Assembly: GCA_964516435.1 (NCBI GenBank)
Contig: CAZEZP010000078.1
Location: forward strand, 118,707-182,706
Direction: 5' to 3'
From: an uncultured Kofleriaceae bacterium
Lineage (GTDB): Bacteria > Myxococcota_A > Polyangia > HGW-17
DNA: 64,000 bases
Below the pieces are notes generated by a model that was not told where the DNA came from, searched no databases, and saw only the letters and a program-made list of their open reading frames with translations. How positions within the stretch are numbered: position 1 is the stretch's first letter; every line of letters begins with the position of its first letter. Below are positions 41,832-64,000 of this stretch, piece after piece. The translations under genes were made by a program, and so were the position numbers.

Positions 41832-42118
41832 AAATAGAGACACAAACAAAACAAAACAACATTACACAATTTTTTTCATTTTTTTTGCTCCTTGTTATTG
41901 TTTGAAAATTTCAAAAAAAACCGAACAAATCAACGATAGATAAAATCAAAACTTTGTAAATTAAAATTAATAAAAATGTATAGGTTTGTCAAGCCGGTTT
42001 TTTCATTAAAAATTTTTCAGCGTGAGAAACACGAATACCGGAACTTCTGTCAGATGCAGGAAAAACTTCCGTCTTTCAGCGAAGAAGACCATTTTGCGGT
42101 CTTCAGAAAGGATTGCTC

Positions 42119-44250: not shown

Positions 44251-44346
44251 AATTTTGCTGTAGAGTTCCTGCTTTTTAATAATCTTCCAAAAAAATGGTT
44301 GTCTGATTTGAAAAGTTGTGAAAATACTCAGTCAAAGGGGTTTGTC

Positions 44347-47119: not shown

Positions 47120-48331
47120 ATGAGCGGACGCAAGGATTACCCGGTGTATTCGAGCCAGTTGGAACAAGTGGTGGGCCGATTGCGCGGTCAGATGCAAAAC
47201 CAGCGGCAGGAACTGAAACGGCAGATGGATGCGAAGATTTCCAGCATGCAGAGCCAGATGCAGGGATATGTGAAACAGCGGGTGAATTTTTTGCATCAAA
47301 ACATCCAGCAGGTGGAAGCGAATTTTCAACGTGATCTGCAAAACATGCAAGGCAGATTGCAATCGTCCATAGATGCTGTACGGCGTCACGTGGATGCTTC
47401 CATTGGAAAGTTGCGCCAAGAACTGCGTCTCGAGCGTGAAAACAGGCAGAAAACTGCAGAAGAATGGATGCGGGTACAGGAGTTTCTGCTCACGGAGCTC
47501 GATCGGCTCCAGGCAGGCCGTTTTCGTCCGGTGGAAGCGCAGAAGCATGTGCAGATGCGGGAGTTGATGCAACAGAACATGGCCAGCGGGAATTTCGAAG
47601 CCGTCATTGGTCAGGTGCAGGCCCTCTACGTCGATTCCTTCGCCCTGCGCGCGGAACTGGAAATCGTCAACCAGCAGGCGGCGCAGATGGAAATGGAAAT
47701 CCGGCAGGGCATGGAGTTTCTTGCGCAGGCGCTCCAGAATCCGGTTTTGCGGCAGGAATACGGCACATCCGAAGGCGGGAAGGAACCGGTGGAAATCGAC
47801 CTGCGCTTCTGGGCCGAGGAAGCCTGGAAGGATTTGGAGTCGAGACAGGTCCAGTTGCAGGATGCCGTGCGGGACATGTCCCGGTTCGATATCGATGCGC
47901 TCCGGCAACTTCGCGAGAGCGTCGAAGCCACCTTGCAACTGCATGCGGAAGCGATGGAAGAAGGCTTGCGTCGCCATTTTCTGCACATAGCTAGCATGGA
48001 TCGGCAGGAAAGCATCGTCGAGGCGCTGGCACGCCAGGGCTTCGAGGTCATCGACAACTTCTTCGAGCAGGATGACGAGCGAAAAGCCAATGTACTGCTG
48101 CTGGAAAACGCCTCGGGAGAAAAGATCCTGGTGCGGGTGGTGCCCACCAGGGATGGAGAGAACATCAAGATCAGTTTCAGTTCGCTCAATCCCGTGACTC
48201 ATGGTTCCCGCATGCGGGCACTCAACCAGGCCATCGGCGTTCAGCCGAGGGAAGAACCCGGCTACGAGACACGGCCGGCGCCGCCCGAGGATTTCGATTT
48301 GGAGCGCTATCGCGTGAAACAGAAGGCATGA
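47120..48331 (+). CDS. Gln-rich coiled-coil protein
   Basis: GGAGG Shine-Dalgarno. Long heptad-repeat N-terminal two-thirds (MQNQRQELKRQMDAK...). No catalytic motifs. Confidence 0.55.
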   Translation: MSGRKDYPVYSSQLEQVVGRLRGQMQNQRQELKRQMDAKISSMQSQMQGYVKQRVNFLHQNIQQVEANFQRDLQNMQGRLQSSIDAVRRHVDASIGKLRQELRLERENRQKTAEEWMRVQEFLLTELDRLQAGRFRPVEAQKHVQMRELMQQNMASGNFEAVIGQVQALYVDSFALRAELEIVNQQAAQMEMEIRQGMEFLAQALQNPVLRQEYGTSEGGKEPVEIDLRFWAEEAWKDLESRQVQLQDAVRDMSRFDIDALRQLRESVEATLQLHAEAMEEGLRRHFLHIASMDRQESIVEALARQGFEVIDNFFEQDDERKANVLLLENASGEKILVRVVPTRDGENIKISFSSLNPVTHGSRMRALNQAIGVQPREEPGYETRPAPPEDFDLERYRVKQKA

Positions 48332-48903
48332 TCATGACTTTTTTGCGTGTGGCCGATTTTTGCCACAAAACCACGGCGTTCGGTCCGCAGCCCGCCTGTG
48401 TGCTGTGGCTGCAGGGCTGCACCCGCACCTGCCCGGGCTGCATCGCTCCGATGTGGCAGGATCCGGCCGGCGGTCAGGAGCATTCCGTGGCAAAGGTGCA
48501 TTCCTGGATCGAGCAGTCTGATATGCCCGTGCTGGTGGTCTCGGGGGGAGAGCCCCTGGATCAATGGCAAGGATTGCATGAACTCATGCGCACAACGTCC
48601 CGGGACGCACGAAGCGCCATTTTATATACGGGATACACCTATACGGAATTATTGCAGCATTCAGGCTTTCAATCGCTCATTCCATTTTTTGATTTGCTCA
48701 TTTGCGGCCCATACATCGAGGAATTGAACGATTCGAAAGGCCTTCGGGGTTCTTCCAACCAGGAGTTGATATTCCGGACGGCGCGCTTCGAGGCATGGCG
48801 GGAATGGTTCGTTTCCGGTGCGCGCACGCTGGAAGTGGAAATCCGCTCCGATTTCGTGCGCATGACGGGGATTCCCCCGGCAGGCATGCACCTGAATTTC
48901 TGA
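48328..48903 (+). CDS. NrdG-family radical-SAM activating enzyme homologue (anaerobic RNR activase-like), orphan
   Basis: CxxxCxxC cluster motif LQGCTRTCPGC, SAM-binding SGGEPL, and NrdG-like C-terminal blocks YTGYTYTELL and LRGSSNQELIF. Compare E. coli NrdG WTGYKLDELN and WRGSSNQVV. Confidence 0.75.
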   Translation: MIMTFLRVADFCHKTTAFGPQPACVLWLQGCTRTCPGCIAPMWQDPAGGQEHSVAKVHSWIEQSDMPVLVVSGGEPLDQWQGLHELMRTTSRDARSAILYTGYTYTELLQHSGFQSLIPFFDLLICGPYIEELNDSKGLRGSSNQELIFRTARFEAWREWFVSGARTLEVEIRSDFVRMTGIPPAGMHLNF

Positions 48904-48919
48904 GAGGCGGTGAGATTCG

Positions 48920-51469
48920 ATGGCACAGTCCCAGGAACAGGCATTTGCGCTATTGAGTGATTATTCCCGGCGCATCTTTTTGTTCAACGGAAAAACCAAG
49001 GATTATTTCCTCATGCCCGATGGGCGTTACATGCGCTTTGAATTGGTACTTCATGAATATCTCAAAAAAGAATTGAATTATGATATTGTCGCTTTTGTTG
49101 ATCATAATGGGCTCTTTTTCTGGGATGAAGAATCTGCCAGAGAAGCCATGCAGGCCAAAAGCCGCCGGGAGAAACCGCGCCCGGCATCCATTCGCGGCCT
49201 CATGAAACGCCCGAAAGGAATCACGACGCGTCCGCCAGCGGAAGCGGAAGCGCCAGCCCCCGTGCAGTGGCGCTATGATTTTGCGGGCGATGCGCGCATG
49301 CTGCTGCCGCAGGTGATGGGCATCCTCCAGCGGGACATTTCGGCGGCCGTGGTGGTGCTGGAGCGCAGCCTGCTGTTCAACATCCACCCGCAGGATCCCG
49401 TTTTTTTCAATTTTCGCGGCTTCCTGTGCGATACGATGACGTTTTTCCCGCACGATAACCGCAATCTCATGATATTTGCAGAAAACACCGAAAACATTCA
49501 GGACCTGGCGCGCCAGTTTGGAGAAATGGGTCTGGGAGACCTGTTTTTTACCCGGGAAAACAGCCAGAGCGACGGCAAGGCTGGATTCGCCTACATCGGT
49601 CCGCCGGGAAGAGAGGAATGCCGGCGGCTTTTTTCCTGGTTCCGGGTGGTCAAACAGCGGCCTGTCCACCTGCCGGATGCCGATGCCATGGGGGTGCTGG
49701 CAGCGTCGTGGTCAAAAGAAAAAAATCAAGGTCTGCATGTTCTAGCGGCGAGACTGGAAAAGGTTCGGGAGTTTCGCCTGGATTCAGTTGAGGAAAAATT
49801 GGAGATGAAGGCCGAAAAGAGCGCGCAGGAATTGCTCGACGACCTGGTAGGCATGGAGGAAGTCAAGAAACAGGTTCTGTTGCAACTGGCCACCCTGAAC
49901 CGGGAGGAAGCGAAAAAGGAGGATGCCAAAAAAGAAGAGATGTTCTGGCCGAAAAGGCTGGGCGCACAGAAAACCACCGGAACCCACCCTTACCTGGATC
50001 ATTTCGCATTGCTTGGCAATCCGGGAACCGGCAAGACCACTGTGGCCCGCATCATCGGAAAACTTTTGCAGGAACGGGGGCTTCTGGAAACGGGGCATTT
50101 CATCGGCGTGACACGGGGAGACCTGGTGGGGGAATACGTGGGAAGCACGGCCGTGAAGACCCGCCAGGTGCTGGAGCGGGCCATGGGAGGCGTGCTCTTC
50201 ATCGATGAGGCGTACTCCCTGTACAAAGGTGAGAGCGATACATTCGGGCAGGAGTGCATCGATACGCTCATCGAGGCGATGGAGACGCAGCGCGGGCGTT
50301 TCGTGATGATCCTGGCCGGCTATCCCAACGAGATGCGCAGACTGATCGCCTCCAATCCCGGCTTCAGGAGGCGCGTAAAGGAAATCGTGATTCCGGATTA
50401 TACGGATGCGCAACTGGCTGAAATCATGCGCCGGATGCTGGCGAAGGATGCCTGCGAATCCGACGTTCGGGAAAACCTCGATTTTTATGTGAAGAATCTG
50501 CTGGCCAACCGGACGGTGAGGAACGACTGGGGCAATGCAGGCGAAATCCGCCGGATTTGCGAAGATGCCCGCAAACGATGCGATGCCCGCAGGGGGAAGG
50601 AACTGTGTGCCCAGGATTTCGAGCATCCGGAATATTTCCAGCCGACTTCGGTCAGGACGGAAACGACGCTCGATGACCTGATTGGCATGGCGTCTCTCAA
50701 GCAGCATCTGAAGAAACTGTTCGTGAGTTTCAAGAGCAAGCAGAATCGGGGGCAGAAGGTGGACGTGGGGCATTATTTCTTCATTGGCAATCCGGGAACG
50801 GGGAAAACCACGGTCGCCCAGATTCTGGCCCGGGAACTGTATGCGCGCGGACTTTTGCGGACACCACGCTGTCTGGAGCATACGGCAATGGACTTCATTG
50901 GCCGGTACGTGGGGGAAACCGAAAACAGGACCCGGGAGATTTTCGAAAAGGCTTTGGGCGGCGTGCTGTTCATCGACGAGGCCCACCAGTTGGTGGATGC
51001 CACCCCCAGAGGTGAAACGTATTCCTATGGACAAGCGGTTCTCAAGACACTGGTGCCCTTGATGGAAAATCACCGGCATGAAATTTCGGTCGTCTTTGCA
51101 GGCTATCCGCAGCAGATGAAGCGTTTGCTGGAATACGACCCCGGGATGAAGAGTCGCATTAAAAGTACAATTCGATTTGAAGATTATAGTAATGAAGAAC
51201 TTCTTCAAATATTTTTAATACAATTTAAAAAAGAATATCCAGACATGTCTTTCCCCCTGGAAATGCAGGCGCCGCTGGCGGATTTCTTTGGAAAAGTGCG
51301 TGCCCTGGAAAGGGAGAAGTTCGGCAATGCACGCATGGTGCGCAATTTCGTGGGAAAACTGGTGGACACTTTGGAGTCGCGCTGGAACGAAGAGTCCGAA
51401 AGTGAAAAAAACATCTCAATGGCAGATCTGGAAAACGCCATGCAGGAATACATGCACCAGAATATGTGA
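48920..51469 (+). CDS. tandem AAA+ ATPase of the CbbX/SpoVK family
   Basis: Two modules, each with GNPGTGKTTVA[RQ]I Walker A, ...GGVLFIDEA[YH] Walker B and sensor regions. The first module is near-identical to the CbbX consensus. 849 aa. Confidence 0.8.
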   Translation: MAQSQEQAFALLSDYSRRIFLFNGKTKDYFLMPDGRYMRFELVLHEYLKKELNYDIVAFVDHNGLFFWDEESAREAMQAKSRREKPRPASIRGLMKRPKGITTRPPAEAEAPAPVQWRYDFAGDARMLLPQVMGILQRDISAAVVVLERSLLFNIHPQDPVFFNFRGFLCDTMTFFPHDNRNLMIFAENTENIQDLARQFGEMGLGDLFFTRENSQSDGKAGFAYIGPPGREECRRLFSWFRVVKQRPVHLPDADAMGVLAASWSKEKNQGLHVLAARLEKVREFRLDSVEEKLEMKAEKSAQELLDDLVGMEEVKKQVLLQLATLNREEAKKEDAKKEEMFWPKRLGAQKTTGTHPYLDHFALLGNPGTGKTTVARIIGKLLQERGLLETGHFIGVTRGDLVGEYVGSTAVKTRQVLERAMGGVLFIDEAYSLYKGESDTFGQECIDTLIEAMETQRGRFVMILAGYPNEMRRLIASNPGFRRRVKEIVIPDYTDAQLAEIMRRMLAKDACESDVRENLDFYVKNLLANRTVRNDWGNAGEIRRICEDARKRCDARRGKELCAQDFEHPEYFQPTSVRTETTLDDLIGMASLKQHLKKLFVSFKSKQNRGQKVDVGHYFFIGNPGTGKTTVAQILARELYARGLLRTPRCLEHTAMDFIGRYVGETENRTREIFEKALGGVLFIDEAHQLVDATPRGETYSYGQAVLKTLVPLMENHRHEISVVFAGYPQQMKRLLEYDPGMKSRIKSTIRFEDYSNEELLQIFLIQFKKEYPDMSFPLEMQAPLADFFGKVRALEREKFGNARMVRNFVGKLVDTLESRWNEESESEKNISMADLENAMQEYMHQNM

Positions 51470-51478
51470 AGGTGAATC

Positions 51479-52072
51479 ATGTCGGATCCGAAACAGGCCT
51501 TTTTTCAGGAAATACGGAAAAGAATCCGCAACCATCCGGAAGGTGGCGTGCTGGAGGTCATGGATGCCATCCTGAAACTTTTCAACATGCTTCCGCCGAG
51601 TCATTCCTGGGGGCAATCCGATGCCTGGATGGAAAAGTTCCAGAAATTGATCGTAGCCATCGATTTTTGCGTGCATTCGGCGGGAATGGAAACGGAAAAG
51701 CAGAAAATCGCGCAGTTGCAGGAAAAGATTGAAAAAAACCAGAATGAGAAAAAAGCACTTGAAGATACGATTCAAAATTTGGAAAATACGCTGGGATTGG
51801 AAAACAAGACGCTGGCCGATTTGCGCGCACTCCTGGAGCAATTGCAGAGCATCGAATTCTTTTTGTCAGCAAACGAGTCCGTGCGCGTCTTGAGAGATCG
51901 GCTCAAGGACGACCAGCAGTTTTGCGTTTCGCTTCCGCAATGGCGCAAGGAGTATGAGAAAGACATGGAAAAAGCCCTGCAGCATCTCACGGAAGCCGAA
52001 AAGATCGTGCAAGTCATCAGCGAGGAATTCGAGCGGCATACCCGGGAAATCCAGGAACGCAACGGAAGGTAA
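51479..52072 (+). CDS. hypothetical coiled-coil protein
   Basis: AAGGTGA Shine-Dalgarno. 197 aa with a central KQKIAQLQEKIEKNQNEKKALEDTIQNLEN heptad region. Confidence 0.5.
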   Translation: MSDPKQAFFQEIRKRIRNHPEGGVLEVMDAILKLFNMLPPSHSWGQSDAWMEKFQKLIVAIDFCVHSAGMETEKQKIAQLQEKIEKNQNEKKALEDTIQNLENTLGLENKTLADLRALLEQLQSIEFFLSANESVRVLRDRLKDDQQFCVSLPQWRKEYEKDMEKALQHLTEAEKIVQVISEEFERHTREIQERNGR

Positions 52073-52081
52073 GGAGAAAGA

Positions 52082-53854
52082 ATGCTATTCGAGATGAAAG
52101 AACTCAGTGCTGAAGAATTTGAAGAGCGGGTCGCCTTCTGGAGTGAGCGGCTGAATAGCAATCGGGTGAAATGTACGCCCGGCCATATGCGCTATTACAT
52201 CGCCGCGCCCCGGCAATCGGAACTGGTGCTGGTCCAGAATGTGGCGGGTTTTTCCCAATGTTTTCTGGAAAAAGCAGATTTTTCACCCCTTTCCAGGATT
52301 CTTCCCACGGGAAAGGAACTCATTCGCCGGCTACTCGATGGGGATTCCGAAGAACGCCGGATTCTGGAAACGCTGGCGGATGCGCTGGATCAACTCGGTT
52401 CATACAACCGGCATGTTTTCTGGCTGGATCCCGATCTGATCCTGTGGGATGGCAGCCGCATCCTGTTTCATCCTTTCGCGTGGCCCCAGATGTTCGTTTC
52501 CGACGAAACCGTCGTCAATCCGGAAATCCGGAACCAGTATGGCTACAAGATGGCCGTAAAAAATCCACGGATTGCCGCAGGCCAGATCGACAGCGACCTG
52601 GAGCGGGTCGCCTTCCTGTATTTTTTGCTGGAGTTGCTTTTCCCCGAGGTTCCATTCCGGAAAATGGACCGGACCATGATCCCCAAATTCCTCAAGTATT
52701 TTTCGAGGGCAGGTGTGTTTATGAAAAAATTTTTGTCGCGCTGGTTTGGAAAATCGCAAAATGAAAAGATTGCGGAAAAACCGCGGGAGATGCTTCAGGG
52801 CATCATCGGCGCGGCCAAGAACAATCCGCTGGCGCCACTTCCCTATCAGGAAGCGCGATATGAATGCGAGTATGATGTGCGCCGCGGGAGACACAAGAAG
52901 GGAACGCACAGCGAAGACGAATATGAAGTGATTGAATCCGGAAAGCACGAGAAGAGCCGGTATTTCATCTTCGTGAGCGATGGCGTGAGCACGGCGGATT
53001 TCGGGGATGGGGACGGCATGGTCCGTTTCCTGCGCGATCAGGTGCAAAATCAGAAGGAACAGATTGCATCCTTCCTGGATTCATTGCCCACGGATGATGC
53101 AAGGAAGTTTGCGGAAGAAAGCCGCTCTTTTCTGCTTGATTTGTGCCGCAAATTGAATGAGGCCGCTATTGAAAAACTCAATGAGCAACTGAAAAAGGAA
53201 AGCAAATCGGCCGAAGACATCCAGCATCCCATGAGCGCCACGCTCGTGCTGGGCGTGGTGTGCGGCAACTGGGTGCATTTCGTTCACATGGGCGACAGCG
53301 AGGTGATTTTCGTGCGGGGTGCAGATGCGTACATTCTGAATACGCCGCACAACGGGCTGCGCGACCGGCTTCTCGAAGAAGCGGCCCATGCGCAGGAAAT
53401 CCGCTCCCGCGTCGATGGGGACGAAGAACTGACGCTCGTCATTCCGGAATTTTCCATCGAGCAGGGGCGATTCGTCTCCAGTCTGGATGCCAATGCCCTG
53501 GAAAGTGTTTCCCTGTATCTGCAGAAGGGGGATTTGCTGCTGTTCTGCACGGATGGCCTGCTCAGTTGTCTGGGACACAATCCCGCCCAGCGGGAGGATG
53601 CCCTTCCGGAGTTGCTTCGCATCCTGCGGGAAACCGATGCGCTTCCTTTCTATGACCGGATCCAGAAGTTGCTCGATGAAGCCAAGAAAACGGGGGAAGA
53701 CGACGTGGCCGTGGTGGGACTGAAGAACATGGGACTGCCCGTTGCAACTTTGGCATCGGGGCAGGAAAAGGAAAGGGAGAAGCCAGGTTCCAGGGAAAAG
53801 GAATCCAGTATTTCTATTACAATCAGGGATTCAAAAAAAGAACGTAAATTATAA
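52082..53854 (+). CDS. PP2C-family Ser/Thr phosphatase with about 270-aa N-terminal extension
   Basis: PPM motifs FVSDGVSTADFGDGDG, HMGDSEVIF, FCTDGLLS and DDVAVVGL in the C-terminal half. TAAGGAGA Shine-Dalgarno. Confidence 0.75.
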   Translation: MLFEMKELSAEEFEERVAFWSERLNSNRVKCTPGHMRYYIAAPRQSELVLVQNVAGFSQCFLEKADFSPLSRILPTGKELIRRLLDGDSEERRILETLADALDQLGSYNRHVFWLDPDLILWDGSRILFHPFAWPQMFVSDETVVNPEIRNQYGYKMAVKNPRIAAGQIDSDLERVAFLYFLLELLFPEVPFRKMDRTMIPKFLKYFSRAGVFMKKFLSRWFGKSQNEKIAEKPREMLQGIIGAAKNNPLAPLPYQEARYECEYDVRRGRHKKGTHSEDEYEVIESGKHEKSRYFIFVSDGVSTADFGDGDGMVRFLRDQVQNQKEQIASFLDSLPTDDARKFAEESRSFLLDLCRKLNEAAIEKLNEQLKKESKSAEDIQHPMSATLVLGVVCGNWVHFVHMGDSEVIFVRGADAYILNTPHNGLRDRLLEEAAHAQEIRSRVDGDEELTLVIPEFSIEQGRFVSSLDANALESVSLYLQKGDLLLFCTDGLLSCLGHNPAQREDALPELLRILRETDALPFYDRIQKLLDEAKKTGEDDVAVVGLKNMGLPVATLASGQEKEREKPGSREKESSISITIRDSKKERKL

Positions 53855-53877
53855 TAAATATAAAGGAGATTTGAAGC

Positions 53878-55182
53878 ATGTCGGAAGGAAAAGTCATTCT
53901 CACCATGTATTCCAACCCGGATTACCTTCCGGGCAACCAGGTAGACCAGGTCATCGAGGGGGTGCTGGTCGTGGAGCCGCCGACGTCCAGCCAGAACGTC
54001 CAGACGGGCACGGATCTCGTGCTGCTGCTCGACTCCAGCGGTTCCATGAATGAAGCCTACTATGACGTGGGCATGTCCAAGCGCCAGAAGGTGGTGGAAG
54101 CCGTCCGTTCGCTTCTGCCGCTCATGTCGGATCTGGATACGCTGACATTCATCAGTTTCAATACAGGCGCTACTTTGTTGCTGGATCATGAGCGCAGGTC
54201 GGCATCCACCCGCATCGAAACCTGCCTGCAGGAATACATGGGCCAGGATGGCGGCACCAATTTCGAAGCCGCCATGCAGGTAGCCAGCACGGTGTGCCAG
54301 AACCGGGTCAACCCCGTTACCCGGCTCATTTTTTTGACGGATGGGCACGCATATGGCGGCAACCCCCAGCGGGCCGTTGAAATTGCCGGGCGTATGGCCA
54401 GTCAGGGAATCATGATCGATTCCATGGGCATTGGCGCCGAATTCAATTTCGATTACATGCGTCAGTTTTCCGCCCTCTGTGCTGGCATCACGGAAAACCT
54501 CGCCCGGGAGGCCAATCCGCAGGTGATATTCCGCAACATCCTGCGTTCCGGCCAGCGCACGATAGCTGCCAACCTCCAGTTGCAGGTGTTTTTCGGGAAT
54601 CACGTGCGCGACGTGGAAATCTACCAGTGCGCGCCCGAAAAGCGCTCGCTGTCCGCCTCTTCCACCACGAGTGCCCATGGGACGTTCTACCAGATGCTCA
54701 TCGGGGATTTGTCCATGGGAAATCCCAAGCAGTTCGTCATGCGCTGCCATGCGGACCTGCCGGATGCCTCCTATGTCAAACTGGCGGATATCCTGGTTAC
54801 CTACCGGGATCCCGCGACCGGCAACCCGGGAAAGATGGAAATCGCCTGGACGATCAACCTGTCGAAAGACGACAAAAACGTGCGCTATGACAGTTTCGTG
54901 CGCGACTGCCTGCGGGAAGTGGAACTGCTCATTGGTCTGGAACAGGCCTTGCGCCTCTACCAGAATGGCAACATCGCCGAGTGCCTGAAGAAAATGGACG
55001 GTCTGATCAAGGATGCCCGGAGCCTGGGCGACGTGGAGCAGGAGCGCATGCTGAGAAAGGCTTTTGAAAAGGTTCAGCGCAACGAGAATCTTTCCCAGGA
55101 GGAACTCAACCGGATGCTACATCGCTCCTCGCGATCGAGCCGGGTGCGCACGACACAGCCGAAGAATACATCCACGTTGTAA
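53878..55182 (+). CDS. von Willebrand factor type A (vWA) domain protein
   Basis: MIDAS motif DLVLLLDSSGSM, plus GGTNF and IFLTDGHAYGG. AAAGGAG Shine-Dalgarno. Confidence 0.75.
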   Translation: MSEGKVILTMYSNPDYLPGNQVDQVIEGVLVVEPPTSSQNVQTGTDLVLLLDSSGSMNEAYYDVGMSKRQKVVEAVRSLLPLMSDLDTLTFISFNTGATLLLDHERRSASTRIETCLQEYMGQDGGTNFEAAMQVASTVCQNRVNPVTRLIFLTDGHAYGGNPQRAVEIAGRMASQGIMIDSMGIGAEFNFDYMRQFSALCAGITENLAREANPQVIFRNILRSGQRTIAANLQLQVFFGNHVRDVEIYQCAPEKRSLSASSTTSAHGTFYQMLIGDLSMGNPKQFVMRCHADLPDASYVKLADILVTYRDPATGNPGKMEIAWTINLSKDDKNVRYDSFVRDCLREVELLIGLEQALRLYQNGNIAECLKKMDGLIKDARSLGDVEQERMLRKAFEKVQRNENLSQEELNRMLHRSSRSSRVRTTQPKNTSTL

Positions 55183-55194
55183 TCGAGGTGTTGC

Positions 55195-56250
55195 ATGACG
55201 CAGAAAGCCTTTCTTTGTGCGGGCACTTCATCGAACAACTATTTATTCAACCCATTTTATCCAGAAACGGACGTAGAATGGACCATTCCGGAGAACTTTC
55301 CGGAAGAAAACGTTCAACTTCACAAGGATGAGAACGGACATCTGCACATCCAGTGCAAGGAAGCCGATGATGTCTATGTTTTCATCTGCAACCGGGGGGA
55401 CATGAAACAGGAAATCGAGAGCCGGTTTGTACGGTTGCCGGAAGTCCTGGAGATTCCCGTGAATGGTTCCTGGCAGTTCCCGCTTTTGGACGGTGCCGTT
55501 TCTCTGCAATGCGAGATGCTGCCGGAAATCGGTCGTCTGGAGCGTTCGCAGGCCGGAAATGAATGGAAACTGATGCCTTTGCAAGAAGGATATGCCACAT
55601 GCACCTGCGTATGGGGTGAAGAAAAAAAATATAAAGTGCAGTCCCAGTTCCGGCTGCGTATCATCCAGGTATCCACGTACTTCGCTCCGTCCGAATCGAG
55701 CCGTCCCGGAATTTTGGCTTCCCCGGACAATGCGAGGGATTCCCTTTCGGCGGCCGCAGATTCTCGGCAAACGGGGCAGGAAGCATCCGGAAAAACCGGG
55801 ATACAGGCGCAGGATTCCGATTCTCCGGCGGATTCCCTGGCATCCCCCAATTCTTTATCGGGAAGTTGGACGGGAAGCATCGATGCCGTTCCAGAGTTGC
55901 GCGGCCCCGTTTTTCTGGTCGTGCGGAAAAAAAATGGAACGGAAGAAATTTCGCGCCATTCCGTGGGATTGGGAAAGAGTCTCGTCGTGGGTAGGGCTTC
56001 CGGATCGGCGCCGCTGGCCGTGGATGTGGATCTCGCTCCCCATCTTTCCAGGGAGAACCGGGACCTGTGTTCCCGCAACCAGTTGCGCGTATTCATTTCC
56101 AACAACCGGGTATACGTGAAAAACATTGGAAGCGTGGATGTCGAACTGGATGACGGAAAACTGCTGCCGGCCGGACAGGGGATGTTTCTGGCCGTTGGCC
56201 GACAGTTGGAAATCGCAGGAGAGATTGCGCTGACGCTGCAGGAAGGATGA
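55195..56250 (+). CDS. FHA-domain protein
   Basis: C-terminal FHA fold (GKSLVVGRASGS...SRNQLRVFISNNRVYVKNIGSVDVELDDGKL). N-terminal 200 aa unknown, with a Ser-rich linker. Confidence 0.7.
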   Translation: MTQKAFLCAGTSSNNYLFNPFYPETDVEWTIPENFPEENVQLHKDENGHLHIQCKEADDVYVFICNRGDMKQEIESRFVRLPEVLEIPVNGSWQFPLLDGAVSLQCEMLPEIGRLERSQAGNEWKLMPLQEGYATCTCVWGEEKKYKVQSQFRLRIIQVSTYFAPSESSRPGILASPDNARDSLSAAADSRQTGQEASGKTGIQAQDSDSPADSLASPNSLSGSWTGSIDAVPELRGPVFLVVRKKNGTEEISRHSVGLGKSLVVGRASGSAPLAVDVDLAPHLSRENRDLCSRNQLRVFISNNRVYVKNIGSVDVELDDGKLLPAGQGMFLAVGRQLEIAGEIALTLQEG

Positions 56251-56251
56251 C

Positions 56252-58582
56252 ATGCTGCCCACCATCAGGACCTTCGAGAACAAGGGCGTACAGTACCAGA
56301 TTCCAGAAACCCTGCAGCAGGGCCGCTACCGAGTCACCGGGGTGCTGGCCCGCGGGGGAATGGGAATCATCTACAAGGCGCTGGATACGCGTCTGCACAA
56401 CAAGATGGTGCTGATCAAGAGCCTCATCTACAAACCATCCATTTTCCAGTACAAAAGCGACAAGGCGCGTGATGAGGAAATCCTCGCCCGGCGGGAGCAG
56501 ATGCGTTCCGAGAAGGTCGTATTGCAATACTTGTGGGAACGCGGTATTGGTGGGGTTCCAATCGTCCTGGATGCATTCGAGGATTTCAATCCCATGCTCC
56601 ACGGTCCGCACCGGGACGAATCCACGGGCGATCTGTACACGTGCAGTGAGTTTTCAACTTCGGATCCCTATCTGGTGCTCAATTATTTCGACGGGGTTCC
56701 CGTTGGCGACTGGGTGTTGGCAGACCCGACGCAACGGCAGAATTTTGCCAAAAGGATTCTGGTCAGCATCACCAAGATTCTGGAGGTGTTGCATCAACCC
56801 TACCGGATGACACTGACGGATGGCCGGGAAATCGTCCTGCAATGCATCTATGGCGACATGAAGCCGGGAAACATCATTCACACCACGGACAAGTCCATCG
56901 TGCTGATCGATCTGGGCAGCGTCGTCAAGAAAATCAATGGCAATATCGAAGGCATCATCACCACCACGCCGGGCTACTGCGCGCCCGAGGTCAACGAGCA
57001 GCTGCAGAATTCCATCCTTGCGGCGGATGTCACTCCTGCGGTGGATGTCTACTCGCTGGCCGCCACGCTCTACGAAATCCTGGCCCGGCAGCCCCCGGCA
57101 GTTTCCATGGGCCACAACCAGTTCGATTTTTCCTTGATTCGCAGGGATTTTCCGGCATGGGAAAAATTTTTACTCACAGCGCTCGATGAACTTCCACAGA
57201 ACCGGTTTCAGAACATGGCGCAGATGCGTGCGGCTTACTATGCCATGGTGGAAGGAAAAACACAGGCAAGTCCACCCGTTGATCGCGGCGAGATTTCCCG
57301 CCGGCTCATGCCGCCGCAGCGGCGGGTTTTCTTTGCTTTTCCGGGCTGGGAAACCCGCCATGAACATTGGGAGCAGAGAATCTTCCTGATGGCCACCCTG
57401 CAGAAGTTGGCCGGCAATTTCTATCTCAATGCCCAAGGGCTGTATGTAGACGCTTCCCGGTTGACTCCTTTGATACCGTTGACTTCCGTGGAAAGAACGA
57501 TGTATTTTCCTTCCTTGAAGTTGCAGTTGCAACAGGTATCGAAGATTTTATGCAAAAACAAGGTTTATTTGCCTGAATTGCTGGAAGAGTATTTTTCAGA
57601 TGAATATTTTTATATAATTTATAAAAGCAAGCAGGGGAATTCCATCAACAAGGATAACCCGGATAAAAATTACATATACAAGAGAATTTCCAGGATCATC
57701 AATACATTCATCGACATGCATGCCAGCGGCATTCTCCTGCCCGAGATTTCCTGGGATGAAATCCGGTTCGACATCACGGATGCGCCGTTGTTCACCCATG
57801 TTTCCCGCCTTACCCATTTGGAGCATCCGCAGCAAGCCTTTCCGCAGTTCCTGCTGCGGATGCTCCAGCCGCGGCATTCGGCGCCGGAAATCGTGCAACT
57901 CAATGAATTCAACGAAAAAACCTACAGCTACCTGGTGGGCCGGCTGCTGCTGGAATTTTTGGCCGATGCCCGCCGGATTTCGTTGGATGACATATATCGG
58001 GGACAGGATTTTCTGGAAAAAGATGCGCTCGAGTCCTGGGCAGGACATCTTACGAACGATCCCGTGCTGCAGAAGTTTCTGTTGCATTCCCTGGCCATTC
58101 CATTGAATTTCCGGGCGTCCCTGTGGGATCTTCGCAGCCTGCTGGCCGACGGAGATATAAACACCCATCAGAGAGCGGGACACGCCGCCGCCGTGCAGGG
58201 GAATCTGATTACGATCCTCTCCAATTTCCATTTGGATTATCAACGGATCTATGCACGGGCTCTCGAGGTTTTTGGAAAGAGGATTCTGTATCAATCATTT
58301 GCCGTCCGGAGAAATGGCGGTACGACCAAATTACCCTCCTTCGTGCAAGTCGTTGTGCATGCCCAGCCGGAAGTCGCCCTGCAGCAAATTCTCCAGCAGC
58401 ATGCCCAGCCGTATCTGATCCTGTGCATCAATTCGCACCACGATGCATGTTTTCAGGTCATCGATCGTCATGCCCGGAATTTTAAGGGGATATTCATCCT
58501 GACAGACAATTTCAATTATTCCTTCCGGCATGCCAACGTGCATGTTCAGACGCTGCTCGAATTTCAGAAGAGGGGAACATGA
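56252..58582 (+). CDS. Ser/Thr protein kinase (non-RD; catalytic motif YGDMKPGN) with about 450-aa C-terminal extension
   Basis: G-loop ARGGMGIIYKA, beta3 Lys VLIK, catalytic loop IYGDMKPGNIIH, DLG (in place of DFG), and TTPGYCAPE. Confidence 0.8.
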   Translation: MLPTIRTFENKGVQYQIPETLQQGRYRVTGVLARGGMGIIYKALDTRLHNKMVLIKSLIYKPSIFQYKSDKARDEEILARREQMRSEKVVLQYLWERGIGGVPIVLDAFEDFNPMLHGPHRDESTGDLYTCSEFSTSDPYLVLNYFDGVPVGDWVLADPTQRQNFAKRILVSITKILEVLHQPYRMTLTDGREIVLQCIYGDMKPGNIIHTTDKSIVLIDLGSVVKKINGNIEGIITTTPGYCAPEVNEQLQNSILAADVTPAVDVYSLAATLYEILARQPPAVSMGHNQFDFSLIRRDFPAWEKFLLTALDELPQNRFQNMAQMRAAYYAMVEGKTQASPPVDRGEISRRLMPPQRRVFFAFPGWETRHEHWEQRIFLMATLQKLAGNFYLNAQGLYVDASRLTPLIPLTSVERTMYFPSLKLQLQQVSKILCKNKVYLPELLEEYFSDEYFYIIYKSKQGNSINKDNPDKNYIYKRISRIINTFIDMHASGILLPEISWDEIRFDITDAPLFTHVSRLTHLEHPQQAFPQFLLRMLQPRHSAPEIVQLNEFNEKTYSYLVGRLLLEFLADARRISLDDIYRGQDFLEKDALESWAGHLTNDPVLQKFLLHSLAIPLNFRASLWDLRSLLADGDINTHQRAGHAAAVQGNLITILSNFHLDYQRIYARALEVFGKRILYQSFAVRRNGGTTKLPSFVQVVVHAQPEVALQQILQQHAQPYLILCINSHHDACFQVIDRHARNFKGIFILTDNFNYSFRHANVHVQTLLEFQKRGT

Positions 58583-60024
58583 ACTCGCCGGTTTATGAGG
58601 AAACCCGGAAAAAGGCGCTCGAGGCGCTCCGGAACAAGGACTACGAGTCGTCATTTCTGCTGCACCTCCAGCAACTCGAATGGTTGCGGCGGGAACCGGT
58701 GGACGTGGAGAATCTCCAGGAACGCCAGCGGGTGCTCAACAACCTGCTGGTGAGCCTGCATGGCCGCATCCAGCGCGGGCAGGCGGAAAATCCACGGGAA
58801 TCCTGCCGGTTGTTCCAGGATTTTCTGAAGGAATACCTGGACGTATCCGGAAACATTCCATTCGAACAGCGCCGCCGGGGAGCCGATAATGTCATTTCGG
58901 ACCTCTACCGCCATGCCCTGCGCGTGACGCTGCTGCAGGTAACGGAAGACGATGGCATTTCCCTGCAGGAACAGGAAAGGCAACTCAAGTGGCATGTGCG
59001 GGATATTTACGACCGGTTCTTCCAGGTATTTTGCCGTGATGGCGCTTTCCCATATGAAATTTTGCTCGATCCATCTATGGATATGTTGTATTTTGAACGT
59101 CGAAATATTTTGCGTAAAGGTCATTTGCAGCAAAATTATTATAATACAATCTGGATGGCAGAGGTGTTCCTGCAATTTTTCTCGGGAGAGCATATGGCAC
59201 GGGTGCGCTCCGAGATCCTGCTGCTGTGCAGTGATGTGAGCCAGTTTCTGCCGCCGCCCCCTGAACATTCCCGGATGCGGTTTGCCGCCGAAATGCAGGC
59301 GATTTCGTGGCTGGACAAAAGTCTGGCGGAATATCCGGAAAACCGGGTGGCACGCGAACGCCGCCAGCAACTGGTTTCGTTCCTCACGGCGGCCGAGCAG
59401 ATCAACCGTTTCCGCCATGATGTCGTTTCCAAGATCGAATCCATCCGGGGAATCCTGGGGAAACTGCAGGAAAGGAATCCCGATGGGGAAAGCCGGCAGC
59501 AACTGCAGGCCGCCATGGTCCACGTGCGCACCATTCTGGGTTCGTTCCGCCTGACCATGCGCGAGCGACCCTCTTTGCGGGGCGTAGCGTCCATGGAATC
59601 GTTCCTGGAACGCTTCGCGGATGCAGATGTCACGGCCAAACTGCAGGGAACTCCGCGGCCGGTGGTGACGGACGAGGAATATCTGGCTCTCGTGGTGCAG
59701 AACCTGGTGCAAAATGCCCGGGAGGCCTATGCCCGGAACCGGATTTCCGGCGGGCAGGTGCATGTCGTGTTCGATTACGACCGTCTGGCGCTGGAAGTTC
59801 GGGATTGGGCCGGCGGCATTCCGGAGGAATTGCGTGCCAATGACAAATTGTTTGAGCCCTATGCCTCTTCCAAGGGCATCCAGCAGAATGCTGGTCTTGG
59901 TCTGGCCAATGTGCGGGAAGCCTGCCGGCTGCTGGAAGCTTCGATACGGTACGAAATCCTGAAACAGGATGGCCATACAGGTACGGTTTTCATTATCACA
60001 CTGAAAGAACCAGAAAGGGATTGA
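58579..60024 (+). CDS. GHKL/histidine-kinase-like ATPase (cytoplasmic, degenerate H-box)
   Basis: C-terminal HATPase_c N-box LVQNLVQNAREA, G1 VRDWAGGIP and G2 GLGLA. FRHDVVSKIESIRG is a possible divergent phosphoacceptor box. ATGA overlap with the kinase gene. Confidence 0.7.
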   Translation: MNSPVYEETRKKALEALRNKDYESSFLLHLQQLEWLRREPVDVENLQERQRVLNNLLVSLHGRIQRGQAENPRESCRLFQDFLKEYLDVSGNIPFEQRRRGADNVISDLYRHALRVTLLQVTEDDGISLQEQERQLKWHVRDIYDRFFQVFCRDGAFPYEILLDPSMDMLYFERRNILRKGHLQQNYYNTIWMAEVFLQFFSGEHMARVRSEILLLCSDVSQFLPPPPEHSRMRFAAEMQAISWLDKSLAEYPENRVARERRQQLVSFLTAAEQINRFRHDVVSKIESIRGILGKLQERNPDGESRQQLQAAMVHVRTILGSFRLTMRERPSLRGVASMESFLERFADADVTAKLQGTPRPVVTDEEYLALVVQNLVQNAREAYARNRISGGQVHVVFDYDRLALEVRDWAGGIPEELRANDKLFEPYASSKGIQQNAGLGLANVREACRLLEASIRYEILKQDGHTGTVFIITLKEPERD

Positions 60025-60027
60025 AAC

Positions 60028-61020
60028 ATGCGTTCACTCAAAATCTTGATCATGGACGATGAAATCTTTGCCAATGACCAGAATCCGGCTATCCAGGCCG
60101 CCCAGCGCCTGCTTGAGGAAGGGCATCTTGTGCAGGTGACCGACCGGATGTCGGAAGTGCTGGGGGGCCTGCAGAAGAAGTTTTTCGATGTCTATGTGCT
60201 GGATATCGACATGTCCCTGGTGCAGGACATCGACAATGCCAGCGGTTCCAATGTCGGCCGGGCGCTTCGGAAATTCAGTTCGCTGACCAACATCGTCGTC
60301 TTCAGTGCGCGCGGCGAGGTGCCCGACTGGTTCACGGCCGCCAACTACCATTTCCAGGGATACGTATTCAAGGGCGATGACGGTGTGGAGAATCTGGCCC
60401 GCCATATCCGGGAACTGGCCGAGCGTCCGATTCCGGTGCCCCGCTTCGATCTCGGAGAACTCGAGCCGCCTTCGCGGGTTCTCGTGTACCGCCATCCCAG
60501 CCTGGGAGAACGCTTTGCGCCCGAGCGCATCCGTCCCTGGATCCAAGCCGTTTATCCCGATGCGGAAATCCATGTTTGCACGCAGTTGCAGGAAGTCGTG
60601 GATTTCCAGCAGGAATGCGGCTGCATTCTGCTCTTGCACACCATGTTCCGGGACCAGGAGAGCACCTGGAGCGATTTGGAGCGGATTTTTGGGCGCCAGC
60701 CCAGACCGCATGTCATCGTGGCCGTGGATAGTTCCGGGGATACGCCCCAGACGCATCGCGGCACCATTCTGAATCTGGTAAACCGGCATCCGTTCCGCCT
60801 TCTGGACCTTGCGGATCCCCGTTTCGAATCCAGTCTGCAGCAGGCCATCGAACGCTCCCGTTTCTGGTATGGCCGCCAGGAAGTATTCGAATATCCCGAG
60901 GAATTCCGGGATCGCATCGGCATGCCACTGACGGCAGAAGACGTGGCCTTGATCCGCGAGCAGGATGAGCGTTTCGATGAACTTTCAATGCAGGACGAGG
61001 GGGATGATCATGAAGCATGA
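60028..61020 (+). CDS. response-regulator receiver (REC) domain protein with uncharacterised C-terminal domain
   Basis: REC motifs ILIMDDE, phospho-Asp YVLDIDM, VVFSA, YVFKG. The C-terminal 200 aa are of unknown function. Confidence 0.7.
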   Translation: MRSLKILIMDDEIFANDQNPAIQAAQRLLEEGHLVQVTDRMSEVLGGLQKKFFDVYVLDIDMSLVQDIDNASGSNVGRALRKFSSLTNIVVFSARGEVPDWFTAANYHFQGYVFKGDDGVENLARHIRELAERPIPVPRFDLGELEPPSRVLVYRHPSLGERFAPERIRPWIQAVYPDAEIHVCTQLQEVVDFQQECGCILLLHTMFRDQESTWSDLERIFGRQPRPHVIVAVDSSGDTPQTHRGTILNLVNRHPFRLLDLADPRFESSLQQAIERSRFWYGRQEVFEYPEEFRDRIGMPLTAEDVALIREQDERFDELSMQDEGDDHEA

Positions 61021-61702
61021 AATTTTCCTTCTGGATACGAACGTCCTGTATGAAATCATTACCCTCTACAGTCCAGAGCCTTCGTCTCTGGCCAAGAAAA
61101 TCGACGGATTTTTGAAAGGCAGAAAACTCGTCTATATTCCGGATATCGTGTGGACGGAATTTACGGCTTCCATATTTCAAAAGAAAATTGATTATAGCGA
61201 TTACAACTCGTGGCATCAAAGAGTTCTATCTTCATATCTTCATGTGTATCAATATCTGCTTGAACATAAAGTAAGAGATTACAAAACCTCCGGAATCGCA
61301 TCCGTCGTGAACATCGATTTCATCGGCTTGGCCCGCGATTTCGCATTCATCCGGCCGGAAGATGATTTCATCCAGTCTCTGGTTGGTGAAACCAGCCAGA
61401 AACTGCAGGCTGCACTGGCGCAGGAGAATCCCGACCCGGCGACCCTGGAATTCATTGAGCGGCAGCGCCACAACCTGGCATCCGGAAAACTCATGGATGG
61501 CTGCGATACCATGATTCTGGCCAGCGCCATCGTGTTTGCCATCCAGCGTGCCGATTCCCGCGTGATTCTTCTGTCCAACGACCGCTGGATGGGCAGGGTC
61601 GCCAACCATTTATTGCAAAATCTGAACAAATATGGCCTGGAAGACCTGAAAAACCGGAGTTTTTCCTTGACAGTGGAAAACCCGAAAAACTTTCGCTTTT
61701 GA
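61010..61702 (+). CDS. PIN-domain nuclease (VapC-like fold, extended)
   Basis: N-terminal IFLLDTNVLYEI and the downstream acidic residues (DGCDTMILASAI) of the PIN fold. GAGGGGG Shine-Dalgarno. The start overlaps the REC gene stop. Confidence 0.7.
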   Translation: MKHEIFLLDTNVLYEIITLYSPEPSSLAKKIDGFLKGRKLVYIPDIVWTEFTASIFQKKIDYSDYNSWHQRVLSSYLHVYQYLLEHKVRDYKTSGIASVVNIDFIGLARDFAFIRPEDDFIQSLVGETSQKLQAALAQENPDPATLEFIERQRHNLASGKLMDGCDTMILASAIVFAIQRADSRVILLSNDRWMGRVANHLLQNLNKYGLEDLKNRSFSLTVENPKNFRF

Positions 61703-61718: not shown

Positions 61719-61955
61719 ATGAATCAATGGAATTATTATTATGTTTTTTCATCAAAAAGTCTTCAAAAATACATTTTACATGGAAATAAATTGCAGTTTC
61801 TGGTAGGCGCAAGCAATCTGATTGAAGGCATTCCAACAAAAGTGATTCCCGCGGTTCTGGATTCGATGGGATTGCAGGCAGACACTGACTACCAGATTCT
61901 TTCTGCCTCGGCAGGCAGTACCCGCATCCTGTTTGCTTCGAAAGCGTCCGCATGA
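61719..61955 (+). pseudogene. 78-codon ORF with strong Shine-Dalgarno, probably the 5' remnant of a gene truncated by an IS256 insertion
   Basis: AAAGGAG Shine-Dalgarno 7 nt upstream. The ORF stops exactly where the high-GC IS-like sequence begins. The N-terminus MNQWNYYYVFSSKSLQKYILHGN... was not recognised. Confidence 0.4.
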
Positions 61956-62159
61956 GTCAAAGTCCAAATGTTGCTGTAAATGCCTTCGGTCCAGTATGCG
62001 CTTGAGTTCTCCAGGCGCCGGTTCCGGTCCTCGACCTCTTCATGTCATCTTCTCCGCCTTGCCGAGGTCGGGGGCAGGGCGTTGGCGTCCAGGTCAGGTT
62101 GTACCCGGCTCTCCAGGGCACCCATGGCAGGTGCCCGTGCCGAGTGCGGCCTGACCCGA

Positions 62160-63425
62160 TCAGGAGGATTCTGTATTCGTCAGGGCAAGTTCACAGCGCC
62201 TGCCCGCAGCCCGGCACCTCCTCTCTCTGGCCCCCTTCACGACCCACCCACTCCCAGAATTCTCCCATTCCAGGCAGCGCAGTTCAAGCCAGGTTTCATG
62301 CGGCTCCATCAGCAGCGCGCCGGTCAACCGCCCGGCGGACGCATTGTTGGGGAAGATCCGGATCACCCGCTCCCGGTGCCGCACTTCCGGATTCATGCGC
62401 TCCTGCATGTTCGTGCTGCGCATGCGTTTGCGGTACTTCTCCGGCAGGGCCATCAGAAGCCATGGCGTCATCGAACCCCTCCTCCAGGCAGGCCACGGAC
62501 TTCTGCGCGAACTTCTCGTATTTATTGCGAAATGCTTCCAGACGGCGGCGTGCCTCTGGAAGGTCCGATGCGTGAAGAACCAGGTTGGCGTCCGGGCCAC
62601 CGCCTCCCGGTGACGGACACTGCAACTGCCGAGGATGTCGCTCAGCAGATGAACCTGGCAGCGCTGCCATGTCATTCCCTGGAAGTTCTTGCGAATCGCC
62701 TCCCGCAAGCCATGATGGGCATCCGAAATGACGAACATCGTACCCCGCAGGCCCACGCCCCTTCAATCACCGGGCCCCTTCAATCACCGGAACGTCTCAT
62801 CCCAGGTGGCAAAACTCTCCGTATCACCGGTCTGGAGCCCGAACACCTCCCGGTAGCCGTCCTCGCGGATGCCGCTCACGATCAAGGCCGCCCGTGACAC
62901 CACCCGCTCATGCTCCCAGCTCTTGAAGAACATGGCGTCGACCAGAACGAATGGGAACGCCGCTTCCTCCAGGCGACGGCTGTTGAAGCCCTTCACCGGC
63001 AGTTCCAGCCACGCGCACAGCGCGCCCACCGTCGACTTCGAAAAAACTCGCTCCGCATAATTGCTCTGTGATTTCCGTGACTTTCCGGGTGGAGACCCCA
63101 TTGACGACCATCTCCATCAACGCCAGCAAGAACGCCTGCAGATGCGTTGATACCGCTGGAATATCTCCACGGAGAACGACCTAACCCGCGTTTGAGACAC
63201 CCGCAGGTTCAGTGGACCCACGCGCGAAAACAGCATCCGCTACCGATACCCGTTCCGGTACCCGGCCCGCTCCCCGGTGCGCTCGTGTTTCCCGGCACCC
63301 AAGGCTTCGGTCGGTTTTCCAGTATTTGATTCAATACCTCTTCCACCAACTGCGCCAATCCATCCCGGCTCGATAAAAGATGGCAAAAACTCCTGGTTCA
63401 CGCCAACTTCATATCCGGCCATCTA
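62160..63425 (-). pseudogene. IS256-family transposase, multiply frameshifted
   Basis: Hallmark segments lie in three frames: AGYRNGYR (63240-63422 ORF), LMEMVVNGVSTRKVTEITEQLCG (62908-63129), FVLVDAMFFKSWEHERVVSRAALIVSGIREDGYREV (62784-63101), and VISDAHHGLREAI...WQRCQVHLLSDIL...NMQERMNPEVRHRERVIRIFPN (62160-62756). Confidence 0.75.
62757..62790. repeat. 17-bp perfect tandem duplication ccccttcaatcaccggg/a inside the transposase pseudogene
   Basis: Two adjacent copies. A 17-bp length is not a multiple of three, which accounts for one of the frameshifts. Confidence 0.5.
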
Positions 63426-63579
63426 TTCCTCCTCTAGCGAATCAAAAACCTTGGCAATCTTGAATTTACAAAACCGAAGTGGTGGCCTCCACCTCTTTAC
63501 AGCACTCTATGAACTCGATCTTGAAAGTCGCGTCGGATTTTTATGAACCGTCAGGATTAGCAGGAATTCGATGGAAGGC

Positions 63580-64000
63580 TCATGAAATGAGCTCGATACG
63601 CGTGATTTTTACATTGTTTCCATCGATGGCAATAGTAATTTTTCCTTCGACCTCTTTCTTGCTTTCCTTGATTTTCTGCGCGAATTCAGCAGATATTTGT
63701 TGTTCTTTCACCAACTCCTCGAGGTCTGCTTCCACAGAAGTTTTTTTTGTTTTTTCAGATTTGATTTGAATACTAATTTTTTTATTTCCCTTATTGTAAT
63801 TTATTGTTTGTTGAAATGTTTCTTCGGTGCTTGAAGAGCCTGAAGTTGCAGCCGAAGAATTCCTGGATTTGCTTACAGAAATAAGGCGGCCATAACCTGC
63901 CACCGTTTTGGCTCCCACTCCCCATTCTTCGAGGGCATCGAGCAAGAGCGCCATTGCCAGATCGACCCAGTCTGAAGGGCCGGAGAGGCAGACCAGAAAC
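63580..64000 (-). CDS. partial CDS (continues beyond right edge) with a glycine-rich GhGxxxxxGhG loop and an AT-rich S/K/E-rich C-terminal tail
   Basis: The frame is open to the window end (…FLVCLSGPSDWVDLAMALLLDALEEWGVGAKTVAGYGRL...). The G-loop resembles Cas6/RAMP glycine-rich loops but is not diagnostic. Confidence 0.4.
   Translation of the reverse strand, partial: FLVCLSGPSDWVDLAMALLLDALEEWGVGAKTVAGYGRLISVSKSRNSSAATSGSSSTEETFQQTINYNKGNKKISIQIKSEKTKKTSVEADLEELVKEQQISAEFAQKIKESKKEVEGKITIAIDGNNVKITRIELIS

Follow-up and report, generated by a model that had tools for sequence, protein, structure and literature searches.

To our knowledge, every characterised type III CRISPR ancillary effector reads the nucleotide signal of Cas10 directly. 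Detocs is a defensive two-component system composed of DtcA, DtcB and DtcC (Rousset et al., 2023, bioRxiv 10.1101/2023.01.24.525353), and the TerY-P triad consists of a vWA protein, a PP2C phosphatase and a Ser/Thr kinase (Anantharaman et al., 2012) that also occur as a stand-alone defence (Gao et al., 2020, as cited in PMC11090510). Cam2, a type III effector with a transmembrane segment and a REC domain, has no partner kinase and was proposed to bind cA3 (Hoikkala et al., 2024, PMC11229360). The kinase family C3a189 is listed in surveys of type III accessory genes, and a single sentence of Altae-Tran et al. notes an association of CRISPR loci with vWA systems that include kinases and phosphatases (PMC10910872). 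Here we analyse a 64,000-nt stretch of DNA (the window) from an uncultured Kofleriaceae bacterium (contig CAZEZP010000078.1, assembly GCA_964516435.1), in which a histidine kinase (HK), a response regulator (RR) and a predicted PIN-domain nuclease (PIN) are encoded in succession. In the literature searched we found no description of this HK-RR-PIN module or of its CRISPR link, and we consider the more important finding from the window to be that type III-B CRISPR loci have an associated phosphorelay-nuclease module that had not been described.

Kinase, receiver and nuclease genes make up one unit, which is conserved and translationally coupled:

58579-60024, + strand: HK, 481 aa, cytoplasmic histidine kinase with a TPR-like N-terminal domain (1-251), a DHp domain (256-326, with H280) and a CA domain (334-474)
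60028-61020, + strand: RR, 330 aa, response regulator with a canonical REC domain (1-132), a second (beta-alpha)5 domain (150-280) and an acidic tail
61010-61702, + strand: PIN, 230 aa, predicted PIN-domain nuclease with a helical insertion of ~110 residues

The sequence bears out the first-pass annotation in the extent of these genes and in their junctions. An ATGA at 58579-58582 is common to the stop codon of the upstream Ser/Thr kinase (STK) gene and the start codon of HK, the HK stop codon (60022-60024) is separated from the RR start at 60028 by 3 nt, and the PIN start codon at 61010, preceded by a GAGGGGG ribosome-binding site, falls within an 11-nt overlap with the 3' end of RR; the PIN stop codon occupies 61700-61702. 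Diverged relative loci, numbered L001 to L025, most of them short metagenomic contigs, keep the order HK-RR-PIN wherever they are long enough to show all three genes, at 25-60% identity, and the RR gene overlaps the start of PIN by 4-26 nt in eight of nine loci. In the window the trio does not stand alone. It closes a signalling operon of 11 genes that is itself conserved, as the last three genes of an uninterrupted + strand run that extends from ~47120 to 61702, its genes spaced by -11 to +23 nt, and it lies beside a type III CRISPR-Cas locus of which a cas10 fragment begins 16 nt past the PIN stop codon.

HK had been described as degenerate, with only a divergent candidate H-box, and both descriptions have to be abandoned. 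The motif QIxRFxHD, containing H280-D281, is invariant in 62/62 full-length family members, as are N379, D409, G413, G439 and G441, and the longer motif QINRF(R/K)HDxVSK(I/V)E(S/T)IRG is invariant across seven relatives at 34-60% identity. The N, G1 and G2 boxes reported before are present and conserved in the family alignment, and the CA domain is complete (N375/N379, DxAGG, FEPY and GLGL for the N, G1, F and G2 boxes); its HATPase_c match (residues 365-478, E 1.7e-14) is the only Pfam match of the protein. An AlphaFold2 model (pLDDT 84.1) is all-helical over the N-terminal domain (1-251) and forms a DHp hairpin from residues 256-299 and 303-326, followed by a CA domain of alpha/beta fold. 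Because H280 is invariant and the fold is that of a DHp-CA kinase, HK is not degenerate, and the notion of a GHKL protein that is no real histidine kinase is ruled out. HK is a genuine cytoplasmic sensor kinase, its DHp domain being HisKA-like but divergent. Its family is small and deeply conserved: a profile search of 1.84 billion representatives gave 42 hits at E <= 1e-30, and ~80 relatives are full-length (440-490 aa). At 50% identity the family comprises ~80 clusters, ranging over Halanaerobiales, Cloacimonadales and other uncultured lineages. No relative was found in viral contigs, and the GTDB representative genomes gave a single match, on a 2.7-kb contig of a Methanofastidiosia metagenome-assembled genome whose binning is uncertain.

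The receiver of RR is equally complete, as Response_reg (Pfam) covers residues 16-116 (E 6.5e-9) and the full set D10, D11, D59, S93 and K115 is invariant in 13 homologues. The C-terminal half, previously left unassigned, can now be described in part: residues 150-280 make up a second (beta-alpha)5 domain, beyond which lies an acidic tail modelled with low confidence; this tail of 42-63 residues carries a net charge of -7 to -18 in 13/13 homologues. No sequence similarity was detected by hhalign between the second domain and the protein's own receiver domain, and no DNA-binding domain was found in RR. Because a DNA-binding output domain is missing and the context is one of defence, we reject the idea that the trio is an ordinary transcriptional two-component system.

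The window PIN protein is matched by the Pfam profiles PIN_12, PIN_4 and PIN at 1e-4 to 7e-4, with PIN_12 and PIN scores below the gathering scores and a PIN_4 score at the cut-off for the 230-aa form (22.0 vs 21.9) and just under it for the 245-aa open reading frame (ORF). Family members match more firmly (7/7 PIN_12, 6/7 PIN and 5/7 PIN_4; best E 1.5e-7). A word-index homologue search returned only the window protein itself, and homologues were therefore collected from the relative loci. In 11 of these, at 27-44% identity, the acidic tetrad of D9 (DTN), E50 (EF), the Asp of KxxDGxD and the final Asp is invariant, with the ~110-residue helical insertion separating the second acidic residue from the third. 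The proteins measure 215-266 aa and have an isoelectric point (pI) of 8.3-9.3 in 8/11 homologues. Compared with PDB sequences, the family profile retrieved no PDB PIN protein, only coiled-coil noise from the helical insertion. A conventional VapBC pair with a hidden antitoxin, which the first-pass annotation had named as a possible refutation, was not found: the gene 5' of PIN encodes the 330-aa REC protein rather than a small DNA-binding antitoxin, and neither the ORFs of the window nor the RR/PIN junction offers a small ORF fitting between the trio genes. With no space and no candidate ORF, this pairing is rejected.

Homologous trios, which it had been suggested to seek in defence islands, do exist, and in one diverged lineage after another the module is found close to type III cas genes. 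All eight diverged loci with readable flanks (at least ~1.5 kb beyond PIN), the window included, carry type III-B cmr genes, Csm6, RT-Cas1/Cas2 (RT, reverse transcriptase) or a CRISPR array within 2.7 kb, the trio standing beside or within the type III locus. In L002, which shares only the AAA+ gene of the upstream cassette, Csm6, Cmr1-6 and Cas6 follow directly downstream; L018 encodes Cas6, Cmr1, Cas10, Cmr3-6 and RT-Cas1, and the 21 kb read of it (10-kb flanks, on a 26-kb contig) contain no CARF, SAVED or CorA effector. RT-Cas1 lies near the trio in L001, Csm6 is found 2.6 kb downstream in L009, Cas6-RT-Cas1 and Cas2 accompany L020/21, and the neighbours in L022-25 are Cas1, Cas2, RT and a CRISPR array with 75 or more repeats. 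The cultured bacterium Halonatronum saccharophilum (L016/17) has the trio inside a CorA/NrN III-B locus, in the order cas1, cas2, HK (short), RR, PIN, a second HK paralogue, nrn, corA, cmr1, cas10 and cmr3-6, without STK, vWA, PP2C or AAA+ genes. Spacing to the cas genes is operon-like, at 16 nt in the window and ~20-50 nt in L002, L018 and L020. The Cas10 proteins of L002, L016 and L018 lack the HD domain and retain an intact GGDD motif, and these systems therefore depend on a nucleotide signal.

Two of these loci call for separate remarks. L001, a 12.6-kb contig and the closest relative of the cassette (59% HK identity), has its PP2C, vWA, FHA, STK, RR and PIN genes broken into short ORFs, reflecting either a decaying copy or poor assembly. 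In L009, the genes past PIN (3179-9848), all on one strand, encode a 103-aa membrane protein, a 618-aa protein with TrkA_N and RyR domains, Csm6 (CARF-6H-HEPN) and a TIR-NACHT-TPR protein.

In the window itself the CRISPR-Cas locus survives only in pieces:

61719-61955, + strand: 5' remnant of cas10/cmr2, 78 codons, matching the N-terminus of the PADLOC models Cas10d (1.6e-8) and Cas10 (3.3e-8)
61961-63515, - strand: insertion sequence (IS) of the IS256/Mutator family with a frameshifted transposase, Transposase_mut matching two ORFs (1.2e-32 and 2e-17)
63583-63999, - strand: RAMP gene resembling cmr6, 3' end only, the rest lying beyond the window edge, PADLOC Cmr6 1.2e-5

An AAAGGAG precedes the start codon of the cas10 remnant, which is truncated by the IS256 element; the transposase of the latter is spread over three frames, its 20-nt inverted arms lie at 61961-61980 and 63496-63515, and its sequence matches plasmids only distantly. 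The cmr6-like match covers the last ~30 model positions, with the motif GVGAKTVAGYGRL. Since this gene lies on the opposite strand, the cmr operon has been rearranged, which suggests an IS-mediated inversion. No CRISPR array was found in the 64-kb window. The cassette looks intact while its CRISPR partner is broken, with cas10 cut and cmr rearranged.

Upstream of the trio, eight further genes complete the cassette:

47120-48331, + strand: 403-aa coiled-coil protein, likely the first cassette gene, with only a weak Apolipoprotein-like coiled-coil Pfam match
48328-48903, + strand: 191-aa NrdG-like small radical-SAM/4Fe-4S protein (Fer4_12 2.8e-22; NCBIfam NrdG 3.1e-19, under cut-off)
48920-51469, + strand: 849-aa tandem AAA+ ATPase of the SpoVK/CbbX/EccA type (two Pfam AAA domains, AAA_lid_6)
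51479-52072, + strand: 197-aa coiled-coil protein, with coiled-coil-type matches only
52082-53854, + strand: 590-aa PP2C phosphatase (PP2C_2 5.4e-10, SpoIIE 5.8e-9), with an N-terminal region of ~270 aa without assignment
53878-55182, + strand: 434-aa vWA protein, TerY/TerF-like (VWA_2 1.2e-12, vWA-TerF-like 7.9e-7)
55195-56250, + strand: 351-aa protein with a C-terminal FHA domain, assigned by family alignment and profile, the window protein having no Pfam match
56252-58582, + strand: 776-aa Ser/Thr kinase, STK (Pkinase 5.9e-14; PADLOC PD-T4-6 8.6e-21, mad6, and weakly C3a189, 3.5e-6)

The order coiled-coil, NrdG-like, AAA+, coiled-coil, PP2C, vWA, FHA, STK, HK, RR, PIN recurs in L018, L020 and L022 at 23-38% identity, and parts of it recur in L001, L004, L011 and L013. 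The assignment of the 403-aa gene follows from synteny alone, because BLAST detects no similarity between its product and the positional counterparts in L018 and L020, where a 377/378-aa gene without Pfam match precedes the Fer4_12 gene. The NrdG-like protein has orthologues at 37-38% identity in the same position in L018 and L020. The AAA+ protein, with orthologues at 30-35% identity in L002, L018, L020 and L022, contains Walker A (GNPGTGKT) and Walker B (LFIDEA) motifs twice each and matches the NCBIfam models spore_V_K (1.9e-113) and CbbX (3e-98), both under their cut-offs; the place of the 197-aa coiled-coil protein is held by a 193-216-aa gene product in L018, L020 and L022. The PP2C protein shows metal-binding Asp motifs and has orthologues in L001, L018, L020 and L022, and the vWA protein, with orthologues in these four loci and in L004 and L011, has an intact metal-ion-dependent adhesion site (MIDAS; DSSGS...GGT...TDG). 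No PADLOC model of any kind matches the vWA or PP2C proteins, which together with STK make up a TerY-P-type set. For the FHA protein, G266, S293-R294 and N310-G312 are invariant in the family alignment, three of six family members match Pfam FHA (best 2.1e-4), and the family profile matches solved FHA domains (6hc0 at 2.4e-4, ArnA weakly).

STK retains the Gly loop, the beta-3 Lys, DxKPxN, D(L/F)G and APE in its active kinase domain. Its residues ~480-776 (57650-58582) comprise a second kinase-like region (SAPE, YSYLxGRLLL, RASL), probably inactive, and an alpha/beta C-terminal domain without match in PDB or Pfam, which is a candidate sensor; the counterpart of this C-terminal part is a separate 503-aa gene in L022 (8493-10004). 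A promoter and terminator scan gave no excess over shuffled sequences, and none of the spaces between cassette genes contains a terminator-like site. The cassette is directly preceded, on its own strand at 42113-46803, by genes for two GTPase+DUF697 proteins with weak LeoA/dynamin-like similarity and for an 834-aa TPR protein. Large dynamin-like GTPases follow cas2 in L020/L021 (L020 16302-21374), and GTPases may recurrently accompany the cassette.

What might such an arrangement do? The reading that we favour, and hold to be somewhat likelier right than wrong, is that the trio is a working His-Asp phosphorelay with a PIN ribonuclease as output, operating with a type III-B CRISPR-Cas system. 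An infection-linked cue would reach HK, either directly through its TPR domain or through a cascade of the STK, PP2C, FHA, vWA and AAA+ proteins, upon which HK would autophosphorylate on H280 and pass the phosphate to D59 of RR. Placed where an antitoxin would be expected, RR might hold the mostly basic PIN inactive through its second alpha/beta domain and its acidic, disordered tail, and phosphorylation would then free or activate PIN, leading to RNA cleavage and to growth arrest or abortive infection, an outcome that we liken to that of Csm6/Csx1 in canonical type III systems.

Several points weigh against this reading. Phosphotransfer, RNase activity and toxicity are all properties that we infer from the proteins' sequences, and the inhibitory contact between RR and PIN is suggested by gene order, overlap and charge, with the window PIN itself having a pI of 6.6. 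The link to a Cas10 product is unexplained because the cassette encodes no CARF, SAVED or other known nucleotide sensor by Pfam, PADLOC and NCBIfam scans; for the second domain of RR, the check consists of whole-protein Pfam and PADLOC scans and the hhalign comparison with its own receiver. L020-L025 show only adaptation genes (RT-Cas1, Cas2, array) nearby, and the link could thus be to adaptation rather than interference. L013/L014 (487-4697) have the order FHA-STK-RR-PIN with no HK between STK and RR and with the receiver residues kept, so that either HK is encoded elsewhere or RR is driven another way. Finally, most loci are short contigs, and the flanks can be read in only eight.

It is conceivable, though in our estimate unlikely, that the cassette including the trio acts on its own in abortive infection, as a system like TerY-P or Detocs, co-located and co-transcribed with CRISPR loci in defence islands and without molecular cross-talk with Cas10. 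TerY-P-like triads are known as add-on or stand-alone defence modules, CARF and SAVED are absent from the cassette by the scans described, L009 and L002 hold typical defence island content (TIR-NACHT-TPR and McrBC, respectively), and the window cassette appears intact despite a destroyed cas10. However, all eight informative loci, at 25-60% identity, carry type III-type cas genes specifically rather than a random defence mix, the distances to these genes are those of an operon (16 nt in the window, ~20-50 nt in L002, L018 and L020), and in Halonatronum the trio is inside the cas locus, between cas2 and nrn-corA-cmr. PIN could also serve CRISPR RNA biology rather than cell killing, for example by trimming crRNA or by supplying RNA-derived substrates for RT-Cas1 acquisition, with the phosphorelay only tuning it. 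The Halonatronum locus is a CorA/NrN system, a PIN-like NYN RNase of CorA-type III-B loci was proposed as a crRNA trimmer, and the module stands right beside RT-Cas1 in four loci. Yet an input of ten genes for kinases, phosphatase and ATPase is unusually heavy for a housekeeping trimming enzyme, gene order and an acidic-tailed partner look like toxin control, and Cas6 is already present in L002 and L018, all of which leaves this role rather improbable.

RR and PIN might also be an addiction module resembling VapBC, one that keeps the CRISPR island stable and to which the receiver merely adds conditional control. A putative inhibitor gene is indeed followed by a toxin gene, the two overlap by 4-26 nt in eight of nine loci, and the upstream protein ends in an acidic, disordered tail. 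But RR lacks a DNA-binding antitoxin fold, PIN with its 215-266 aa and large insertion differs from a VapC of ~130 aa, a dedicated HK is conserved alongside, and no small ORF fits between the genes; we consider addiction very unlikely. Returning to a phosphorelay that operates with type III-B CRISPR-Cas, it is tempting to go one step further and to propose that the cassette is the signal-receiving arm of HD-less, cyclase-only type III-B systems. Target-RNA recognition by Cmr would be relayed, through the Cas10 product or by direct contact, to Ser/Thr kinase, FHA and PP2C proteins and then by His-Asp phosphorylation to release of the PIN RNase, with no CARF or SAVED receptor involved and with the STK C-terminus, the second domain of RR or the TPR domain of HK as a new kind of sensor. 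This extension is speculative and in our view probably incorrect. More generally, a conserved His-Asp phosphorelay that mostly follows a cascade of Ser/Thr kinase, phosphatase, FHA, vWA and AAA+ proteins and has a nuclease as its output would be a different way to couple CRISPR immunity to a cell-fate decision. Halonatronum saccharophilum, a cultured and sequenced host of a compact form, makes the question of CRISPR coupling directly testable.

Elsewhere in the window, a low-GC island at 16947-21297 (45-50% vs ~60%) encodes an ABC-type transporter-like protein and, at 19121-20155 on the - strand, an SMC_N/AAA_15 ATPase matching PADLOC mad3 (3.4e-16), PtuA and GajA, adjoined by a 370-aa protein without matches; the island may be a second defence locus. 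Genes at 3684-5480 and 27029-31464 encode a sigma-54 NtrC-type response regulator, a GspD secretin and a type II secretion system E ATPase. With a secretin, a type II secretion ATPase and a sigma-54 activator encoded, the host is therefore diderm.

How, then, does the locus compare with the systems from which we started? The upstream genes resemble an extended TerY-P triad, with a TerY/TerF-like vWA protein carrying a MIDAS, a PP2C phosphatase and STK, and they are attached to another defence system, as is TerY-P in CoCoNuTs; SpoVK-like ATPases also accompany such modules. However, the C-terminus of STK is a pseudokinase-like region with an alpha/beta domain rather than a zinc ribbon or OB fold, and extra FHA, tandem AAA+, NrdG-like and coiled-coil genes are followed here by HK-RR-PIN. 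Cam2 likewise has a receiver fold and a gene within type III CRISPR loci, but the dedicated HK with its conserved His and the complete receiver pocket found here point to real phosphorylation. As with Csm6/Csx1 HEPN proteins, CARF-PIN proteins and CRISPR-associated NYN proteins, a non-Cas nuclease stands beside cmr or csm genes with a cyclase-motif Cas10, and either collateral cleavage or processing of RNA would be expected to result. These ancillary RNases rely on nucleotide sensing by CARF or SAVED domains, whereas none is detectable here and the nuclease is placed behind a phosphorelay.

The closest parallel is Detocs, and the Detocs-like logic noticed at first pass stands in its outline, a kinase, a receiver and a nuclease effector in fixed order, without apparently extending to membership. 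Both have a cytoplasmic sensor kinase bearing TPRs (DtcA there, the TPR-like HK here), and in both His-to-Asp transfer to a receiver would govern a cell-killing effector rather than a DNA-binding domain; Detocs effectors are of swappable types, with endonucleases in some variants. Yet no stand-alone buffer receiver like DtcB is present, the cassettes of the window, L018, L020 and L022 having one receiver gene each, and the effector, fused to the receiver in DtcC, is encoded here by a separate, overlapping PIN gene, RR carrying a second alpha/beta domain and an acidic tail in place of a fused effector. No model of PADLOC-DB v2.0.0, a release in which Detocs models are not confirmed, matches HK, RR or PIN at E <= 0.01. 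The module is, moreover, set within a cassette of STK, PP2C, FHA, vWA and AAA+ genes and is constantly linked to type III CRISPR-Cas. Hence the trio resembles Detocs in logic and is probably not a member of it; if the phosphorelay operates as we propose, defensive two-component systems would be of two kinds, Detocs having been the first.

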